From: a virus
Lineage: Duplodnaviria; Heunggongvirae; Uroviricota; Caudoviricetes
Reading direction: 5' to 3' (one strand)
Length of the DNA stretch: 23,224 nucleotides
IMG/VR virus record: IMGVR_UViG_2537561562_000009
A program made the position numbers and the translations under genes. Below the pieces are notes generated by a model, which was not told where the DNA came from, made no database searches, and was given only the letters and a program-made list of their open reading frames with translations. This document shows, one piece after another, positions 884 through 8,961 of the stretch (position 1 is its first letter; each line of letters opens with the position of its first letter).

Positions 884-1264
884 ATGACTGAACGCATAGA
901 ATTTGTTTTGCCTTACCCGCCAACGGTGAACACTTACTGGCGTCGTCGTGGCAGCACATATTTTGTATCAAAAGCCGGGGAGCGTTATCGCCGGGCAGTG
1001 GCGCTTATTGTTCGCCAGCAGCGGCTGAAATTAAGCCTGTCCGGAAGGTTGGCAATAAAAATTATTGCAGAACCACCGGATAAGCGCCGCCGTGACCTGG
1101 ACAATATTCTGAAAGCGCCGCTGGATGCGCTGACGCATGCGGGGTTGCTAATGGACGATGAGCAGTTTGATGAAATCAATATCGTTCGTGGTCAGCCAGT
1201 ATCTGGTGGACGTCTGGGGGTGAAGATTTACCCCATAATGCATGAAGAGCAGGTCAAAAAATGA
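884..1264 (+). CDS. rusA: Holliday junction resolvase RusA
   Basis: 126 aa; motifs LPYPPTVNTYW and RRRDLDNILKAPLDAL...DDEQ match the RusA family as remembered; ATG directly follows the upstream stop. Confidence 0.85.
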   Translation: MTERIEFVLPYPPTVNTYWRRRGSTYFVSKAGERYRRAVALIVRQQRLKLSLSGRLAIKIIAEPPDKRRRDLDNILKAPLDALTHAGLLMDDEQFDEINIVRGQPVSGGRLGVKIYPIMHEEQVKK

Positions 1265-2082
1265 AACTGGAAGATTTACCGAAATACTACTCCCCAAAAT
1301 CCCCCGGCCTGACTGATGCATCGGCCTCAACGTCGAAAGATGCGCTGAGTATCACTGATGTGATGGCCGCGCAGGGCATGACACAGAATCGGGCTGAGAT
1401 GGGGTTTTCTGCGTTCCTGGGGAAAATGGGCATCAGTATGAATGACAGGGCGCGGGCAACAGAATTACTGGCAGATTATGCACTCAGTCGGTGCGATCGT
1501 GTGGCGGCGTTGAGAAAACTTCCGGCAGAAATAAAACCGGTAGTGATGCGCATTATGGCTTCGTACGCTTTTGAGGATTATGCCCGCAGCGCAGCGAGTA
1601 AAAAGCAGTGCCCCTGTTGCCGAGGGGAAAAATTTATTGAAGGCGAAGTTTTTACAAACAAGGTTCAGTATCCGGATGGCAAGCCGCCAGTGTGGGCAAA
1701 GTGCACAAAAGGCGTGTATCCGTCTTACTGGGAAGAATGGAAAAAAGTCAGGGAGGTGGTAAAAGTTGCCTGTCCGGAGTGTGGCGGAAAGGGTGAGGTT
1801 TCCACCGCCTGTAAGGATTGCCGTGGGCGTGGTGTCGCCATTCATCGTGAAGAGTCGGTAAAACGTGGTATGCCTGTTATCAGAGATTGCCAGCGTTGTG
1901 GTGGTCGTGGCTGTGAAAGGCTGCCATCAACGGAGGCATTTAATGCCATATGCAAAGTGACGAGTGCTATCACGCTTGATACGTGGAAAAAATCAGTGAA
2001 ACGCTTTTACGATACGTTGGTGGTTCGGTTTGACATTGAAGAGGCATGGGCGGAGCGGCAGTTAAAGAGGGTAACGCGATAG
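1261..2082 (+). CDS. Putative late-gene antiterminator (Q-like) with DnaJ-type CxxCxGxG zinc fingers
   Basis: 273 aa; start overlaps the rusA stop (ATGA); three CxxC(G)xG motifs (CPECGGKG, CKDCRGRG, CQRCGGRG); lies between rusA and a promoter/terminator module, the canonical position of Q. Assignment is by position and zinc-finger content, not by recognised sequence identity. Confidence 0.55.
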   Translation: MKLEDLPKYYSPKSPGLTDASASTSKDALSITDVMAAQGMTQNRAEMGFSAFLGKMGISMNDRARATELLADYALSRCDRVAALRKLPAEIKPVVMRIMASYAFEDYARSAASKKQCPCCRGEKFIEGEVFTNKVQYPDGKPPVWAKCTKGVYPSYWEEWKKVREVVKVACPECGGKGEVSTACKDCRGRGVAIHREESVKRGMPVIRDCQRCGGRGCERLPSTEAFNAICKVTSAITLDTWKKSVKRFYDTLVVRFDIEEAWAERQLKRVTR

Positions 2083-2087
2083 TGTTG

Positions 2088-2122
2088 TTGATTTTTCCCG
2101 AATCTGTGGTAAATTTGCTCTA
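2088..2122 (+). promoter_or_regulatory. Candidate late promoter (PR'-like) with presumed Q-utilisation region
   Basis: TTGATT (2088-2093), 16-nt spacer, TAAATT; located just after the Q-like gene and about 50 nt upstream of a strong intrinsic terminator, as for lambda PR'/tR'. Confidence 0.3.
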
Positions 2123-2163
2123 ACGATGGGCGTTTTATGCCTGACGTTAGAAGATTTTTTACA

Positions 2164-2187
2164 CCCCGCCGCCTGGCGGGTTTTTTA
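2164..2187 (+). terminator. Intrinsic terminator (tR'-like)
   Basis: GC stem CCCGCC / GGCGGG (2165-2170 / 2175-2180), loop GCCT, followed by TTTTTT (2181-2186). Confidence 0.6.
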
Positions 2188-2656: not shown

Positions 2657-3706
2657 ATGCTTGATACTGTAAAAATATCCAGTTGTGAGTTAATCAACGC
2701 CGACTGCCTGGAATTTATCCGGTCGTTACCCGAAAATTCTGTTGACCTGATAGTCACGGACCCGCCGTACTTTAAAGTGAAGCCTGAGGGCTGGGATAAC
2801 CAGTGGAAGGGCGACGATGATTACCTGAAGTGGCTGGACCAGTGTCTGGCGCAGTTCTGGCGGGGGCTGAAACCTGTCGGGAGTCTTTACCTGTTCTGTG
2901 GTCATCGCCTGGCATCTGATATCGAAATCATGATGCGTGAACGCTTCAGTGTGCTGAACCATATTATCTGGGCGAAGCCGTCCGGACGCTGGAACGGATG
3001 CAACAAGGAAAGCCTGCGGGCGTATTTCCCCGCCACAGAGCGCATTCTGTTCGCGGAACATTATCAGGGGCCGTATCGTCCGAAAGATGCCGGGTATGCG
3101 GCGAAGGGCAGTGCACTGAAACAGCATGTGATGGCCCCGCTGATTTCTTACTTTCGTGATGCGCGCGCGGCCCTGGGGATAACGGCAAAACAGATTGCAG
3201 ATGCCACAGGAAAGAAAAACATGGTGTCGCACTGGTTCAGTGCCAGTCAGTGGCAGCTACCGAACGAAAGCGATTATCTGAAATTACAGTCGCTGTTTGC
3301 CCGGGTGGCAGAAGAGAAACATCAGCGCGGTGAACTGGAAAAGCCCCACCACCAGCTGGTGGATACGTATACGTCACTGAACCGGCAGTATGTGGAGCTG
3401 CAGAGTGAATATAAGCATCTGCGGCGGTATTTTGGTGTGACGGCGCAGGTGCCGTACACGGATGTGTGGACACATAAACCGGTGCAGTTCTATCCCGGGA
3501 AACATCCGTGCGAAAAACCGGCAGAAATGCTGCAGCAGATAATCAGCGCAAGCAGTCGTCCGGGTGACCTGGTTGCAGATTTTTTTATGGGCTCAGGTTC
3601 AACGGTAAAAGCTGCACTGGCGCTCGGGCGTCGTGCGATTGGCGTTGAACTGGAGACCGGACGTTTTGAGCAGACAGTCAGGGAAGTTCAGGATTTAATC
3701 GTTTGA
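2657..3706 (+). CDS. Orphan DNA methyltransferase, beta-class (N6-adenine or N4-cytosine)
   Basis: 349 aa; catalytic DPPY motif near the N-terminus (LIVTDPPYF) and AdoMet-binding FxGxG motif near the C-terminus (DFFMGSGST), i.e. motif IV before motif I. No adjacent restriction endonuclease candidate. Confidence 0.85.
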   Translation: MLDTVKISSCELINADCLEFIRSLPENSVDLIVTDPPYFKVKPEGWDNQWKGDDDYLKWLDQCLAQFWRGLKPVGSLYLFCGHRLASDIEIMMRERFSVLNHIIWAKPSGRWNGCNKESLRAYFPATERILFAEHYQGPYRPKDAGYAAKGSALKQHVMAPLISYFRDARAALGITAKQIADATGKKNMVSHWFSASQWQLPNESDYLKLQSLFARVAEEKHQRGELEKPHHQLVDTYTSLNRQYVELQSEYKHLRRYFGVTAQVPYTDVWTHKPVQFYPGKHPCEKPAEMLQQIISASSRPGDLVADFFMGSGSTVKAALALGRRAIGVELETGRFEQTVREVQDLIV

Positions 3707-3755
3707 AACGGATGAGATTGCAGAATTAATTACGCACCATTATTATTCTGCTTCC

Positions 3756-3831
3756 GGCCCTTTAGCTCAGTGGTGAGAGCGAGCGACTCATAATCGCCAG
3801 GTCGCTGGTTCAAATCCAGCAAGGGCCACCA
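3756..3831 (+). tRNA. tRNA with anticodon CAT (Met or lysidine-modified Ile2, ileZ-like)
   Basis: 76 nt; acceptor stem GGCCCTT / AAGGGCC, anticodon loop CTCATAA, T-loop GGTTCAAATCC, encoded 3' CCA. Confidence 0.85.
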
Positions 3832-3931
3832 TCACAAACCGCCATTAGCTTATCAGGAAGAGCAGACGACACGATAACAGGGTTGTTGGTGCGGGGGCGG
3901 GTCCCCGATGGCGGTCCATTATCGGTATTCA

Positions 3932-4008
3932 GCGTTGTTAGCTCAGCCGGACAGAGCAATTGCCTTCTAAGCAATCGGTCACTGGTTCGAATCCAGTACA
4001 GCGCGCCA
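3932..4008 (+). tRNA. tRNA-Arg (anticodon TCT)
   Basis: 77 nt; acceptor stem GCGTTGT / ACAGCGC with one G-U pair, D-arm AGCTCAGCCGGACAGAGC, anticodon loop CTTCTAA, T-loop GGTTCGAATCC, discriminator G plus CCA. Confidence 0.85.
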
Positions 4009-4145
4009 TATTCATTCTTCCAGATTCCTTTCGGCAGAGCCTTATACTGAAATATACCTGGCTCAGGATATTGTTGAAAATATTATATGTTTGTCAAAAA
4101 TAAAAGTTCTGTTAAGTGTTGATTGAGTGTTTGTTATACGGTCTA

Positions 4146-4472
4146 ATGGTTTTTTCAGCATTAAATATTTATCATTCATATGGTGTGGGTAGAGTGAATA
4201 TTGATGAGGCGTCGGGGTGTTTCATCCTTAGGCAGCGTATTGATATAGTCAATGCAGAACGAGCAAAGGCCTTCAGCCGTTTGACAGTTTTGTTCTGTAC
4301 TCCTGATCGTCTTTCGGGAAGAGACGTTATTATTCTGAATAGTGATGCTATACAGAGGGTTTGCGATGAGTTCATGGTTGCTAATTCAGAATTATTTGCT
4401 CTTGTTCAGGAGTACAACAGAATAGCCAGGACCTGTGGTATGGATGAACTTCGGATTACTCATCTGGGGTAG
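4146..4472 (+). CDS. Hypothetical protein in AT-rich cargo island (about 108 aa from ATG 4146; alternative GTG start at 4116)
   Basis: Open frame 4116-4472 in an AT-rich segment; no convincing Shine-Dalgarno and no recognisable motifs. Coding status uncertain. Confidence 0.3.
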   Translation: MVFSALNIYHSYGVGRVNIDEASGCFILRQRIDIVNAERAKAFSRLTVLFCTPDRLSGRDVIILNSDAIQRVCDEFMVANSELFALVQEYNRIARTCGMDELRITHLG

Positions 4473-4863
4473 ATACATATCTGGATTATCACCGGTTACG
4501 GTAAAAAGTGATTGCTTACTGTTTTTGTGAATGGCATTGCAGCAGCCGGATAATGTCAGTGCTGGCTGACGGTGTGCTGGTGGCGGGGGTGGGGGTTGCT
4601 GCTTTCCCGTTGCTGAAAAAGAAAACGCCAGACTGTTAGCCGGGTATCAGTTAGCGGGAGAAATTTTTAAATACTTCACAATTCAGGCGGTTGACTGTTG
4701 TCTGGTTTGCGGGGAGTTTGTTAAAAGAAACTGGCATGGTGAATCCCCCTGTGCGGAGGGGCAATCAGCGAGTAGGTATATGGGATAATCGCGGATTCAG
4801 GTGCTGGTACTGAATTCACCGGGAGGCACCCGGCACCATGCAATGGCACATAGCGCCACTCTC

Positions 4864-4899
4864 CAGCCCCTCTCCGGAGGGGCTGTTTATATTGATTTT
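4864..4899 (+). terminator. Strong intrinsic terminator hairpin within cargo island
   Basis: Perfect 9-bp stem CAGCCCCTC / GAGGGGCTG (4864-4872 / 4877-4885), 4-nt loop TCCG, followed by TTTATATTGATTTT. Confidence 0.55.
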
Positions 4900-4919
4900 G
4901 TCAGATGTGAGTAAACTCC

Positions 4920-5255
4920 TTATGGACTTTGTTGTTTTAGCCCATAAGGACATATTTGCAGAGTGCAACGGTTATTAAAGCATTCATTCAATACGTTATC
5001 TGTATTTGTAGGGCATTCCTGGCTGTTTTTGATTAAATTCCAGAATGTTTTATTGAATGGTACTACGTTGTAAATGGTTACAGGCAGCACTTTGTTATTG
5101 AGCATGATGCCTGTGTGAGTCAGTGTAAATATACTTTCAGGAGGTAAGAAAGCATCCGATTGATACCAGATTATTAATTTTATTTTACTCCATATGACTG
5201 AAAAAGATATTCCGCATGATGGCTGGATAACTGTATCAATCACAATCCACTTCAT
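4920..5255 (-). CDS. Hypothetical protein, minus strand, AT-rich cargo island (111 aa)
   Basis: ATG at 5255 preceded on the minus strand by AAGGAAACTAA (AGGAA about 6 nt upstream). Divergent from the downstream esterase gene across a 245-bp AT-rich intergenic region. No recognisable motifs. Confidence 0.35.
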
Positions 5256-5500
5256 TTAGTTTCCTTGTTTATGCCTTGCTGGTGATGTTCTGAAAAGTAT
5301 AAATGATATTTTTGATTGTAAACCATAGAGCAGAATTATTTTTCTGATGTTGTTTATTGTTTATTTAAATGCAGGGTGGTTTATATCTCGTCTTGTAGTT
5401 TATCCATGCATATCTGCTTGATGATGAGGTTTTTAATTAAGGTATGGTTTTGTGTTTTTTCTGTATTACATGTCAGGTATTTTAAAGAATCATTTTTCAG

Positions 5501-7369
5501 ATGGTGAAAAGAACCATGGCATTTAAACACTATGATGTTGTCAGGGCGGCGTCGCCGTCAGATCTTGCGGAAAAGCTGACACATAAACTGAAAGAGGGCT
5601 GGCAGCCGTTTGGTAGTCCGGTGGCCATAACCCCTTATACCCTGATGCAGGCGATTGCAGCAGAAGGTGATGTGGTCGTCAGTGGTGCAACTGAGCCGGA
5701 GTGGTACTACGTCATCGTACTGGCCGGGCAGTCCAATGCCATGGCTTACGGTGAAGGGCTTCCGCTTCCGGATTCATACGATGCGCCCCATCCGCGCATT
5801 AAGCAACTGGCCCGTCGTAACACAGTGACTCCCGGTGGTGAAGTATGCGTATTTAACGACATCATTCCTGCTGACCATTGTCTGCATGATGTTCAGGATA
5901 TGAGTACGATTAACCATCCCCGGGCTGACCTGAGCAAAGGGCAGTACGGCTGTGTCGGCCAGGGCTTACATATTGCCAAAAAACTGCTTCCGTATATCCC
6001 TAATAATGCGGGGATCCTGCTGGTACCATGCTGTCGTGGTGGTTCGGCATTCACCCAGGGCACGGAGGGGACATTCAGCGAGTCCACGGGGGCCAGTCAG
6101 GATTCGGCTCGCTGGGGAGTGGGTAAGCCGTTATATCAGGATCTGCTTTTCCGCACGAAGGCAGCATTGCAGAAAAACCCGAAAAACGTTTTGCTGGCGA
6201 TATGCTGGATGCAGGGGGAATTCGATATGACGAATGCCAGTTACGCCCAGCAGCCAGCAGCATTTCTTGCAATGGTACAGCAGTTCCGTGCTGACCTTGC
6301 CGGGCTGGCAGCGCAGTGTCACGGTGGAAGTCCGGCATCAGTCCCCTGGATTTGTGGCGACACGACATACGCGTGGAAACAAGAACACGGTACGCAATAT
6401 GAAGTGGTATATGGTGCATATAAAGGTAAAGAATCCCAGCAGATTTATTTTGTTCCCTTTATGACCGATGGTAGCGGAGTTAATACACCGACAAACAACC
6501 CGTCAGAAGATCCTGATATTGCCGGGTCTGGTTATTACGGTTCGGCATCCCGAACGAACAAAAACTGGGTATCATCAAATCGCCCGACGCATTTCAGCTC
6601 ATGGGCGCGTCGTGGCATTATTCCCGATCGTATGGCAACTGCTATTCTGAACGTAGCCGGGCGCACCTCAGCCTTCATCAGTGGTAAGGCACCGGAAATC
6701 AAACCCTCGCCCGGCGGCGACACGCCATCGGGTCCGTCTGCAGATACGTCCGTTCGCACAATCTCCCTGCTGCCGACAGCCGGAGAGGCTGCTGCGCAGG
6801 GCTGGACCATTAAGGACGGCGGAATTCAGTTGTCGGGTGGTGTATTTAAGATCGCCAAGCAGAGCAATAAAGCCTGGTCCCTGACGCGCCCGGTGGATGA
6901 CGCAGTCTCCCTGCTGACACGGGGTGGCAGACTGAGCTGTAAGTTTCGACTGTCAGGCGCACTGACCAACAATCAGTTCGGTCTGGGAATTTATCTGTAT
7001 ACCGATGTAGCGTTACCTGACGTCGTGGCGATGACCGGGACTGGTAACCCGTTCCTGATGTCGTTCTTCACCCAGACCACAGACGGCAAACTGAATCTGA
7101 TGCATCACAAGAAAGCAGGAAACACAAAGTTGGGCGAGTTCGGGAATTACAGTAACGACTGGCAGACGCTGGAGCTGGTGTTCACCGCCGGCAGTGCCAC
7201 GGTTACTCCGAAACTGAATGGAGTGGCTGGCCCGGCATTCCAGGCCATAAAAGACAGTCTGGCAGTGGGACTAAATGCACTGACGCTGACGGATATTACC
7301 AAAAATGCAACGTATGGCGTTGAGATAGAAAGTCTGGTGCTGGAGATAAATGCACCGGCATCATCATAA
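5501..7369 (+). CDS. nanS-p: Prophage sialate O-acetylesterase-like protein (NanS-p-like; DUF1737 N-domain plus SGNH hydrolase plus C-terminal domain)
   Basis: 622 aa; SGNH block-I-like motif YYVIVLAGQSNAMAYGEG about 20 residues after the N-terminal domain; position between the tRNA/cargo region and the holin matches NanS-p of Stx and related lambdoid prophages. True start may be the second ATG at 5516 (MAFKHYD...). Confidence 0.7.
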   Translation: MVKRTMAFKHYDVVRAASPSDLAEKLTHKLKEGWQPFGSPVAITPYTLMQAIAAEGDVVVSGATEPEWYYVIVLAGQSNAMAYGEGLPLPDSYDAPHPRIKQLARRNTVTPGGEVCVFNDIIPADHCLHDVQDMSTINHPRADLSKGQYGCVGQGLHIAKKLLPYIPNNAGILLVPCCRGGSAFTQGTEGTFSESTGASQDSARWGVGKPLYQDLLFRTKAALQKNPKNVLLAICWMQGEFDMTNASYAQQPAAFLAMVQQFRADLAGLAAQCHGGSPASVPWICGDTTYAWKQEHGTQYEVVYGAYKGKESQQIYFVPFMTDGSGVNTPTNNPSEDPDIAGSGYYGSASRTNKNWVSSNRPTHFSSWARRGIIPDRMATAILNVAGRTSAFISGKAPEIKPSPGGDTPSGPSADTSVRTISLLPTAGEAAAQGWTIKDGGIQLSGGVFKIAKQSNKAWSLTRPVDDAVSLLTRGGRLSCKFRLSGALTNNQFGLGIYLYTDVALPDVVAMTGTGNPFLMSFFTQTTDGKLNLMHHKKAGNTKLGEFGNYSNDWQTLELVFTAGSATVTPKLNGVAGPAFQAIKDSLAVGLNALTLTDITKNATYGVEIESLVLEINAPASS

Positions 7370-8427: not shown

Positions 8428-8961
8428 ATGAACGCAAAAATCAGATACGGCCTGTCGGCTGCCGTTCTGGCGCTGATTGCCGCTGGTGCGCCTGCGCCTG
8501 ACATTCTCGACCAGTTTCTGGATGAAAAGGAAGGCAATCACACCACGGCATACCGTGATGGTGCAGGTATCTGGACCATCTGCCGTGGTGCCATCATGGT
8601 GGATGGCAAACCTGTCGTTCCGGGCATGAAGTTGTCGAAGGAAAAATGCGACCAGGTTAACGCCATTGAGCGTGATAAAGCGCTGGCGTGGGTGGAGAAA
8701 AACATCAGAGTGCCACTGACCGAACCCCAGAAAGCGGGGATCGCGTCATTCTGTCCGTACAACATTGGTCCCGGTAAGTGTTTCCCGTCGACGTTTTATA
8801 AACGAATTAATGCAGGTGATCGCAGGGGAGCGTGTGAGGCGATTCGCTGGTGGATTAAGGACGGTGGCAGAGACTGCCGTATTCGTTCAAACAACTGCTA
8901 CGGTCAGGTATCCCGTCGTGACCAGGAGAGCGCGCTGGCGTGCTGGGGTATCGACAGATAA
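8428..8961 (+). CDS. R: SAR endolysin (T4-lysozyme-fold muramidase with N-terminal signal-anchor-release domain)
   Basis: 177 aa; weakly hydrophobic Gly/Ala-rich N-terminus YGLSAAVLALIAAGAPAP; catalytic E-x8-D-x5-T signature in EGNHTTAYRDGAGIWTICRG; pairs with the upstream pinholin. Confidence 0.85.
   Translation: MNAKIRYGLSAAVLALIAAGAPAPDILDQFLDEKEGNHTTAYRDGAGIWTICRGAIMVDGKPVVPGMKLSKEKCDQVNAIERDKALAWVEKNIRVPLTEPQKAGIASFCPYNIGPGKCFPSTFYKRINAGDRRGACEAIRWWIKDGGRDCRIRSNNCYGQVSRRDQESALACWGIDR

Follow-up and report, generated by a model that had tools for sequence, protein, structure and literature searches.

A prophage late-region interval spanning the position of stx in phage 933W carries iraL, an STnc100-family sRNA gene and two further small genes

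Introduction

In the Stx2 phage 933W, the late-region genes following the first phage tRNAs are arranged in the order argO, stx2AB, STnc100, AsxR (on the minus strand) and nanS-p. The STnc100 element situated here directly downstream of stx2B belongs to an RNA family whose transcription has been verified by Northern analysis and whose copies are abundant in uninduced EDL933 (PMC5331693), and it is overlapped by the Hfq-bound sRNA EcOnc27/sRNA103 (PMC12711010). PasD has been described as related to STnc100 (2026 preprint). A further described system is IraL of the uropathogenic E. coli strain CFT073, an RssB anti-adaptor stabilizing the sigma factor RpoS in log phase (Hryckowian et al. 2014, PMC4045071). 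[quoted passage not shown] The iraL site was named 'potB genomic island' in that study and not described as a phage late-region cargo gap (PMC4045071).

Here, a 23,224-nt stretch of DNA from a tailed-phage record (IMGVR_UViG_2537561562_000009; the window) was analysed, in which a sequence-only reading had singled out about 1.5 kb between tRNA genes and nanS-p as AT-rich cargo at the stx-equivalent position, bearing no recognisable genes and representing the best candidate in the window for an undescribed phage-carried function. According to the present results, this interval is very probably composed, like a mosaic, of four short accessory elements, with one cargo gap on either side of a conserved prophage sRNA; it belongs to the late region of a lambda-like E. 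coli prophage of the CFT073 potB type.

Results

The interval (positions 4010-5500, 1,491 bp) is indeed placed between the phage tRNA-Arg gene and the SASA/NanS-p gene (Table 1). Its description as AT-rich is appropriate for the mean GC content, 39.8% compared to 53.0% for the whole window, but not for all of its parts, as values range unevenly from 32% (4010-4145) and 42% (ORF 4146-4472) to 47% (4473-4704) and 54% (STnc100), then dropping to 33% in the iraL module (4900-5500). The 1,491 bp contain two stop-to-stop ORFs with 100 aa or more, compared to a mean of 0.27 in mononucleotide shuffles (P(>=2) = 0.023). While the coordinates given for the described features proved to be correct, the view that no recognisable genes are present has to be abandoned, as iraL (NF007393), DUF3927, STnc100 (Rfam) and phrog_2873 were all matched. 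Likewise, neither of the two ORFs said to encode proteins without any recognised match is an orphan, the minus-strand ORF being iraL and the plus-strand ORF matching phrog_2873 over its full length (E 1.7e-70, profile positions 1-108/108). Hence, the interval is composed of iraL, STnc100, a DUF3927 peptide gene and one uncharacterised gene for 92-108 residues, and is mostly ordinary. In the left backbone flank, a gene identical to the CAT-anticodon tRNA is named tRNA-Ile by PGAP. The remnant at the middle-tRNA position, which obtained no tRNA score by ARAGORN or Rfam, has retained its ends with the centre replaced, and is aligned with a likewise altered copy in phage mEp460_ev081.

Table 1. 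Features of the interval and its flanks in the window.
Feature	Position	Strand	Evidence and remarks
tRNA, anticodon CAT, ileZ-type	3756..3831	+	ARAGORN; Rfam tRNA, 72.5 bits; alignment with O104:H4, CFT073 and 933W
Diverged remnant at middle-tRNA position (argN of 933W)	3839..3915	+	Alignment
tRNA-Arg (TCT), argO-type	3932..4008	+	ARAGORN, Rfam, alignment; end of the left backbone, followed by cargo gap 1
Small protein gene, phrog_2873 family	4146..4472	+	108 aa from ATG 4146
DUF3927 ('TciB-like') peptide, 43 aa	4508..4639	+	Pfam PF13064, 88.1 bits (cut-off 25), E 3.6e-25, profile positions 7-53/53; phrog_1470, E 7e-10
STnc100-family sRNA gene	4705..4894	+	Rfam RF02076, 132.4 bits (gathering score 47), E 5.5e-30, model positions 1-206/206; intrinsic terminator as 3' end
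iraL module	4887..5514		33% GC; between STnc100 terminator and nanS-p start
iraL, RssB anti-adaptor (IraM family), 111 aa	4920..5255	-	Identity to CFT073 IraL; NF007393; 8twd
iraL 5' UTR and predicted sigma-70-type promoter	5256..5322	-	TSS 5288; TATACT 5301-5296; TTTACA 5322-5317; AAGGA 5266-5262
SASA/NanS-p esterase gene	5501-7369		Right neighbour of interval

When the tRNA-to-nanS-p interval was compared across lambdoid phages and prophages (933W, phi296, mEp460, JLK-2012 and CFT073), as the sequence-only reading had proposed, two gaps flanking STnc100 became apparent, the latter being located at the equal position in all five. Window positions 3638-4016 are collinear with the 933W tRNAs (86% identity to 2003-2380 of record L011), and similarity to 933W and JLK-2012 starts again at 5515/5523. 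In phi296, both gaps are empty and STnc100 follows straight after the tRNAs; its sequence agrees fully with the window as far as the terminator and diverges beyond. Phage mEp460_ev081 shares 4010-4842 with the window, vB_EcoS phages share 4676-5500. Judged by these alignments, the stx-equivalent gap is gap 1, which spans only about 4016-4676 and holds ORF 4146-4472 and DUF3927, and iraL sits in a separate gap 2 (4887-5514) downstream of STnc100, the same gap that is occupied by AsxR in 933W. The interval can thus still be addressed as lambdoid late-region cargo zone, with stx2AB lying between the last tRNA and STnc100 in 933W, but just this first part corresponds to the stx slot. Of 5,426 complete E. 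coli genomes, 863 match the full 1.5 kb over 80% or more of its length, the best matches showing 99.8% identity; among the same genomes, the iraL module is present in 1,446 and the gap-1 module in 1,183. At the sequence level, it is supported that the elements are accessory and modular. That the cargo zone consists of two gaps split by STnc100 may be of help to annotators of phage and E. coli genomes. The second of these gaps houses minus-strand elements expressed in the lysogen, namely AsxR in the Stx2 phage 933W and iraL in the window.

The minus-strand ORF in gap 2 shows the good Shine-Dalgarno sequence ascribed to it (AAGGA, 7 nt before the ATG). It had been regarded as unknown; the encoded protein, however, agrees in 111/111 residues (100% identity) with the characterised IraL from CFT073 (WP_000871291.1; positions 33465-33800 of record L005). 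In line with this, it reaches 162 bits with the NCBIfam model NF007393 (IraM; cut-off 121), matches the IraM structure PDB 8twd with an E of 9.1e-32 and shows 62% identity to K-12 IraM over 107 residues. The published transcription start sequence from 5'RACE, ACATCACCAGCAAGGCATAAACAAGGAAAC (PMC4045071), maps to window position 5288. The promoter hexamers were assigned by reading the sequence and are the same in CFT073, with three single-base differences (-28, -1 and +26) in the region from -100 to +33. An interpretation of iraL as Q-dependent late cargo is not supported, considering its opposite strand, the conservation of the 5'RACE start and hexamers, and the activity of CFT073 IraL in growing, uninduced cells. 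By analogy with CFT073, binding of RssB and stabilization of RpoS would be expected for IraL also in the source strain. Prophage-borne raising of RpoS in growing lysogens by iraL is already characterised since 2014. A role of the hairpin at 4864-4885 as bidirectional terminator also serving iraL was considered and is unsupported, as the minus strand does not show a T-tract after the stem.

The GC-rich patch embedded between the two gaps had been noted for its strong terminator. This hairpin was confirmed by a terminator scan (stem at 4864-4885 with 9 bp, among them 7 G-C pairs, and a T-tract to about 4899), but the patch itself is not an unrecognised sequence and represents the known sRNA family STnc100. 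The minimum free energy fold reproduces the multi-branch core and the terminator of the family. As in other lambdoid prophages, the element precedes nanS-p within the late region and has an intrinsic terminator at its end. Analogous to the 933W copy, the window STnc100 may work as an Hfq-dependent base-pairing sRNA.

Rather than being a gene of its own, STnc100 might arise by processing from the 3' UTR, terminator included, of the transcript of DUF3927 (gap 1), its main role being that of a terminator passed by Q-modified polymerase. Consistent with such a scenario, STnc100 or PasD follows about 40-70 nt after DUF3927 in the window, in JLK-2012 and in prophage PP2 of E2348/69, a consensus scan did not find a convincing promoter upstream of 4705, and record L006 possesses two cargo cassettes which both end in STnc100. 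Nevertheless, a DUF3927 gene is found at STnc100 neither in phi296, where the element follows the tRNAs, nor in 933W, where it follows stx2B, and STnc100 copies are abundant in uninduced EDL933 (PMC5331693), rendering this alternative rather unlikely. The search for own promoters of the gap-1 genes or STnc100 gave 7 consensus sites versus 5.7 expected from shuffled sequence, a number not above chance. From their orientation alone, which is that of the late operon, we infer that the gap-1 genes would owe most of their expression to the late transcript antiterminated by Q, like Stx.

The DUF3927 peptide comprises one hydrophobic segment followed by KKK, and its gene starts with GTG preceded by a weak ribosome-binding site. 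An orthologue is annotated by PGAP in O104:H4 and CFT073. The name 'TciB' derives from annotation and does not stand for a tested function, and searching the literature on DUF3927/tciB did not reveal anything relevant. The corresponding ORF had not been listed in the sequence-only reading.

The other gap-1 gene, the plus-strand ORF ending at 4472, is present as previously delineated, with possible starts at GTG 4116 (118 aa), ATG 4146 and GTG 4194. The last of these, which may be the true start, yields the conserved 92-aa core. A total of 23 homologues was found, every source-named one being from Escherichia or Shigella. More remote relatives from a profile search share 22-41% identity, are 91-106 aa long (most of them 91-95 aa) and show the conserved motifs ERAxAFSxLTVxYxTPDR and ANxELxxLVxEYNxIA; when profile-searching 1.84 billion representatives, only 20 small proteins were retrieved, none with a Pfam family. 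Among 50,697 phage genomes the ORF is encoded in a single one, mEp460_ev081. It occupies the Stx slot in about one-fifth of the complete E. coli genomes. Homology searching and structure prediction, which had been recommended for both ORFs, thus identified the minus-strand product as IraL but gave no functional lead for this protein: it does not match Pfam, NCBIfam or PADLOC, and the AF2 model, based on a shallow alignment (pLDDT 75), is a helical hairpin for which Foldseek against PDB and BFVD did not find any match with E < 0.1, the neighbours being generic coiled coils.

Considering these properties, it has to be asked whether the interval serves as a cargo slot under Q control whose unknown genes encode an undescribed phage function (virulence, defence or superinfection exclusion). 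In favour of this view, ORF 4146-4472 and DUF3927 are late-oriented, lack a functional assignment and are found precisely at the stx2AB site of 933W, the former gene is under apparent purifying selection, and a 41%-identical relative has retained a position after a Q-like gene and tRNA. On the other hand, two of the four elements, iraL and STnc100, are already described, iraL lies on the other strand under a promoter of its own, and the hairpin predicted for the ORF product is generic, with no informative structural neighbour. A defence function is not backed by PADLOC-DB 2.0 either, as none of its models matches any of the three proteins at E values up to 0.1. Altogether, a cargo slot of this kind is improbable, and the idea of late cargo without assigned function is applicable just to ORF 4146-4472 and, less fully, to DUF3927. 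There is only a slim chance that the phrog_2873 protein (92-aa core, 4194-4472), perhaps together with DUF3927, is a late-expressed effector with a new host-directed role; if so, it might, for example, bind and inhibit a host protein in lytic growth or exclude other phages.

Could ORF 4146-4472 be a chance open frame in an AT-rich spacer? PGAP has no call for it in O104:H4, in CFT073 or in any other RefSeq record listed, the ORF called by RAST in mEp460_ev081 is another one on the minus strand, the product belongs to no Pfam or NCBIfam family and the N-terminal 16 residues of the 108-aa form are not conserved. These points are outweighed by a dN/dS of 0.26 with codon-position differences of 25/22/43, that is, a third-position excess, versus the 58%-identical homologue of record L006, by the motif-bearing distant relatives of similar length, the phrog_2873 match and the pLDDT of the model, albeit obtained with few sequences. 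Accordingly, a chance frame is very unlikely, and ORF 4146-4472 looks like a real gene under purifying selection. Since RefSeq annotation omits the gene, the phrog_2873 protein has gone unstudied, and a conserved gene located at the stx position in over 1,100 complete E. coli genomes thus lacks annotation in the RefSeq records listed.

Finally, a decayed stx locus or other pseudogene remnant, for which only the position shared with stx2AB of 933W would speak, can be dismissed at the sensitivity of the searches, as tblastn of Stx2A/Stx2B against window 3901-5600 gave only noise (E = 4), blastn of the stx2 locus against the window had the start of the STnc100 region as its sole match, neither stxA/stxB nor remnants of them were found between the tRNAs and STnc100, and each of the four elements is intact and aligns with its family from one end to the other.

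Discussion

The region flagged as best candidate for an undescribed function consists mainly of iraL and STnc100, so that the value of this analysis is corrective; little in it is new, iraL and STnc100 being already known. In the proposed late-region order, the Q antiterminator would be followed by a DNA methylase, tRNAs, gap 1, STnc100, gap 2, the nanS-p esterase and holin/lysozyme genes. The plus-strand genes of gap 1, coding for the phrog_2873 helical-hairpin protein and the presumed 43-aa DUF3927 membrane peptide, would be read from the late transcript. Between the gaps, STnc100 would be made as a structured, terminator-ended RNA capable of Hfq-dependent base pairing, and iraL in gap 2, read in the opposite direction from a sigma-70-type promoter of its own, would be a typical moron that is active in the lysogen.

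PasD1/PasD2 from EPEC E2348/69 resemble the window sRNA in the order DUF3927, sRNA and nanS-p and in a common core (GCAUGGUGAAUCC..GGAGGGGC). In contrast, the PasD seed/probe sequence CCTTGTGAGTTCTGGCTGCGCATG is missing from the window copy, and the PasD2 locus scores below the STnc100 gathering threshold. An identity of the window sRNA with PasD was consequently rejected, as only the structural core aligns. K-12 IraM (YcgW) shares with the window IraL the family NF007393 and the match to the 8twd chain, but is encoded in another genomic context, beside the e14 prophage remnant. With 933W, the entire backbone of Q, tRNAs, gap, STnc100, gap, nanS-p, holin and lysozyme is shared, and the sRNA corresponds to the one overlapping with EcOnc27/sRNA103 in its full-length model match, multi-branch core with terminator and location upstream of nanS-p. 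The two phages differ in the contents of both gaps, stx2AB in 933W versus the phrog_2873 ORF and DUF3927 in the window for gap 1, and the minus-strand anti-sRNA AsxR versus the minus-strand iraL for gap 2. Also the STnc100 copies are not equivalent (132 bits in the window versus 208 in 933W); because the window copy has a shorter central arm and another 3' linker, its target specificity may deviate from that of the 933W copy. A further counterpart is the lambdoid potB prophage of CFT073, which differs in a truncated nanS-p and an IS200 element after Q, but in which tRNAs, an unannotated ORF, DUF3927, STnc100, iraL and nanS-p/holin follow in the same order, with an identical IraL and a conserved sequence at the mapped transcription start.

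Setting of the interval and its recognisable genes

The sequence of the window corresponds to the late half of a lambda-like E. coli prophage; in it, the interval at 4010-5500 (1,491 bp) lies between phage tRNAs and a NanS-p-type esterase gene. The hairpins following the antitermination gene likely represent a PR'/tR' unit, and the small ORF after them has no annotation in O104:H4 beyond 'hypothetical'. Within the ileZ-argN-argO trio, the middle tRNA is replaced at 3839-3915 by a segment with acceptor-stem ends kept and a different centre, which is not recognised as a tRNA by ARAGORN or by the Rfam tRNA model. The same replacement is found in phage mEp460_ev081, while the trio is intact in phage 933W, O104:H4 and CFT073. 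Among 5,426 complete E. coli genomes, at least 80% of the interval is covered in 863 and portions of it are present in 2,860, with best matches at 99.8% identity that include O104:H4 outbreak strains.

Features in and around the interval (window coordinates)
Feature	Position	Strand	Remark
DUF968 gene and RusA			upstream of interval
Q-type antitermination gene	1261-2082		upstream of interval
Two terminator-like hairpins	2116-2180		directly after Q gene
Small ORF	2222/2309-2506		after hairpins; weak winged-helix (TrmB/MarR) similarity
N6/N4 DNA methylase	2657-3706		upstream of interval
Backbone match	3638-4016		933W tRNAs
Phage tRNA (CAT)	3756-3831
Phage tRNA Arg-TCT	3932-4008
phrog_2873 ORF	4146-4472	plus
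DUF3927 peptide, 43 aa	4508-4639		PF13064, 88 bits; phrog_1470 'TciB-like'
Backbone match	4676-4842		933W STnc100
STnc100 sRNA	4705-4894
iraL	4920-5255	minus
iraL promoter hexamers	TATACT 5301-5296; TTTACA 5322-5317	minus	assigned by eye from sequence
DUF1737/SASA (NanS-p type) esterase	5501-7369		downstream of interval
Backbone match	5515-5623		933W nanS-p start
Holin			downstream, past the esterase
Lysozyme	8428-8961		downstream of interval
Terminase, portal, capsid and tail genes			lambda-like; downstream of interval

The sequence-only reading had described an AT-rich cargo island without recognisable genes. Both of its ORFs and the hairpin with T-tract were found where it had placed them, and a pair of stop-to-stop frames of 100 aa or more in 1.5 kb is above shuffled expectation (mean 0.27, P(≥2) = 0.023). 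AT-richness holds for the ends (4010-4145, 32% GC; 4900-5500, 33%) but not for 4473-4899 (47-54%; whole window, 53%). Recognisable elements are present, contrary to the sequence-only reading: iraL, an STnc100 sRNA, a DUF3927 peptide and a phrog_2873 match were all identified. The finding is real as sequence, its interpretation largely overtaken by existing knowledge. Identities, family memberships, gene order and selection on the phrog_2873 ORF were computed here.

The minus-strand gene is iraL

Against NCBIfam NF007393 ('anti-adapter protein IraM'), the product of the minus-strand ORF reaches 162 bits, above the cut-off of 121; the solved IraM structure (chain 8twd) is matched at E 9.1e-32, identity to K-12 IraM is 62%, and PGAP labels the product 'anti-adapter protein IraM'. 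It is identical in every residue to WP_000871291.1 of the CFT073 potB prophage, the gene for which was identified as iraL by Hryckowian et al. (PMC4045071). For this identical protein, function and transcription start site (TSS) have been shown experimentally, the latter mapped in CFT073 by 5'RACE (PMC4045071), and the published 5' end sequence falls on window 5288, minus strand. AAGGA is found 7 nt ahead of the ATG. Compared with the CFT073 promoter and 5' UTR, the window has three single-base differences at 5316, 5289 and 5263 (-28, -1 and +26 from the TSS); a promoter variant in some strains is mentioned in the same study, where its activity was not tested (PMC4045071). The gene and its upstream region are present in 1,446 of the 5,426 complete genomes. 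Because of the identity to CFT073 IraL, the conserved mapped TSS and the strand opposite to the late operon, this ORF is a characterised, lysogen-expressed moron; contrary to the earlier proposal, it is neither unknown nor Q-dependent cargo. In the source strain, IraL would be expected to be active.

An STnc100 sRNA and its possible role in mosaicism

The GC-rich patch is an STnc100 sRNA, with a match along the whole Rfam model RF02076 at 132.4 bits (E 5.5e-30; gathering score 47), and the terminator noticed previously forms its 3' end. Folding of the single sequence recovers the terminator, three internal hairpins and the helix, CAUGGUG/CACCAUG, that closes the structure. STnc100 is found at the equivalent place in 933W (208 bits), phi296, mEp460_ev081, JLK-2012 and CFT073, and one E. 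coli contig holds two copies. In EDL933, 11 copies are transcribed without induction, one of them Northern-verified (PMC5331693). The STnc100 copy immediately 3' of stx2B is overlapped by EcOnc27/sRNA103, an sRNA bound by Hfq (PMC12711010), and STnc100 located 75 nt downstream of stx2 has been detected in outer membrane vesicles (PMC12370729). Expression has thus been demonstrated experimentally for other STnc100 copies (PMC5331693), and Hfq binding for the overlapping EcOnc27 (PMC12711010). The window copy would be a base-pairing sRNA dependent on Hfq. In the O104:H4 locus, a partial 'hypothetical protein' pseudogene called by PGAP (L001 6715-6840, about window 4724-4849, minus) lies wholly inside and antisense to STnc100 and is probably a spurious call.

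The EPEC sRNAs PasD1 and PasD2 are related to STnc100 according to a 2026 preprint, and PasD2 of E2348/69 has the same arrangement of DUF3927, sRNA and nanS-p as the window. However, only the structural core is common to both sRNAs, the PasD2 locus gives no STnc100 match at gathering score and the PasD2 seed sequence was not found in the window; assignment as PasD was therefore rejected, and the window copy is of the STnc100 type.

Phage matches to the interval are modular: mEp460_ev081 has 4010-4842 in common, vB_EcoS phages 4676-5500, and the breakpoints are located within STnc100 or at its end. At window 4842 and in the L002 and L003 locus alignments, mosaic breakpoints between prophage variants lie in the conserved core immediately upstream of the terminator region, thus joining one sRNA body to differing 3' ends in different prophages. 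Tandem cargo cassettes are seen in E. coli GCA_045757245.1 (L006 1810-6058), the first with a TolA-like gene and STnc100 copy 1 (2344-2556), followed by an AraC-type regulator, an IS3-family element, a diverged phrog_2873 homologue, STnc100 copy 2 (5650-5839) and nanS-p. As each of these cassettes ends in STnc100, the core is suggested to be a recombination anchor.

An unannotated gene of the phrog_2873 family

The plus-strand ORF has no match in Pfam, NCBIfam or PADLOC and is unannotated by PGAP in O104:H4 (L001 6137-6463), CFT073 (L005 32691-33017) and every other RefSeq record listed. In 1,183 genomes with the module of the tRNA-to-STnc100 gap, 'DUF3927 family protein' is the only annotation listed under the match; the DUF3927 peptide, annotated by PGAP, has a single hydrophobic segment. 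Nevertheless, the ORF is judged a real gene on comparative grounds, because the phrog_2873 profile is matched over its full length (E 1.7e-70), a second clade of homologues (about 58% identity) lies at the equivalent site ahead of STnc100 and nanS-p, and dN/dS is 0.26 over 91 aligned codons (25 changes at first, 22 at second and 43 at third positions). Further support comes from distant relatives, one of which likewise sits after a Q-like antiterminator and tRNA. When 1.84 billion representatives were searched with a profile, only 20 related proteins were recovered, including relatives of 91-106 aa at 22-41% identity, with the common motifs ERAxAFSxLTVxYxTPDR and ANxELxxLVxEYNxIA. As the conserved core starts at NIDE, GTG 4194 may be the true start. 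Among 50,697 phage genomes, the ORF is present in only a single one. In the AlphaFold2 model (pLDDT 75), helices 19-51 and 66-97 form a hairpin, for which Foldseek gave no informative neighbour in PDB and BFVD. With low confidence, we would guess at a small soluble helical protein engaged in protein-protein binding during lytic growth.

Comparison with Stx phages

Comparison with the 933W stx2 locus gave no stx remnant in the interval. The order in 933W is ileZ-argN-argO, stx2AB, STnc100, AsxR (minus strand) and nanS-p. From the backbone matches, the stx-equivalent gap is therefore at about 4016-4676 and holds the phrog_2873 ORF and DUF3927, genes which would be expressed from the Q-antiterminated late transcript. 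The stx-equivalent position assigned previously thus stands for this part but not for iraL, which by gene order is in a separate second gap (4887-5514), where 933W has AsxR. In phi296, both gaps are empty. The AsxR anti-sRNA (RF02703, 88 bits; L011 3985-4037, minus strand) abuts the STnc100 3' end in 933W and shares gap and strand with iraL of the window. Lysogen-expressed elements on the minus strand seem to accumulate in this STnc100-to-nanS-p gap.
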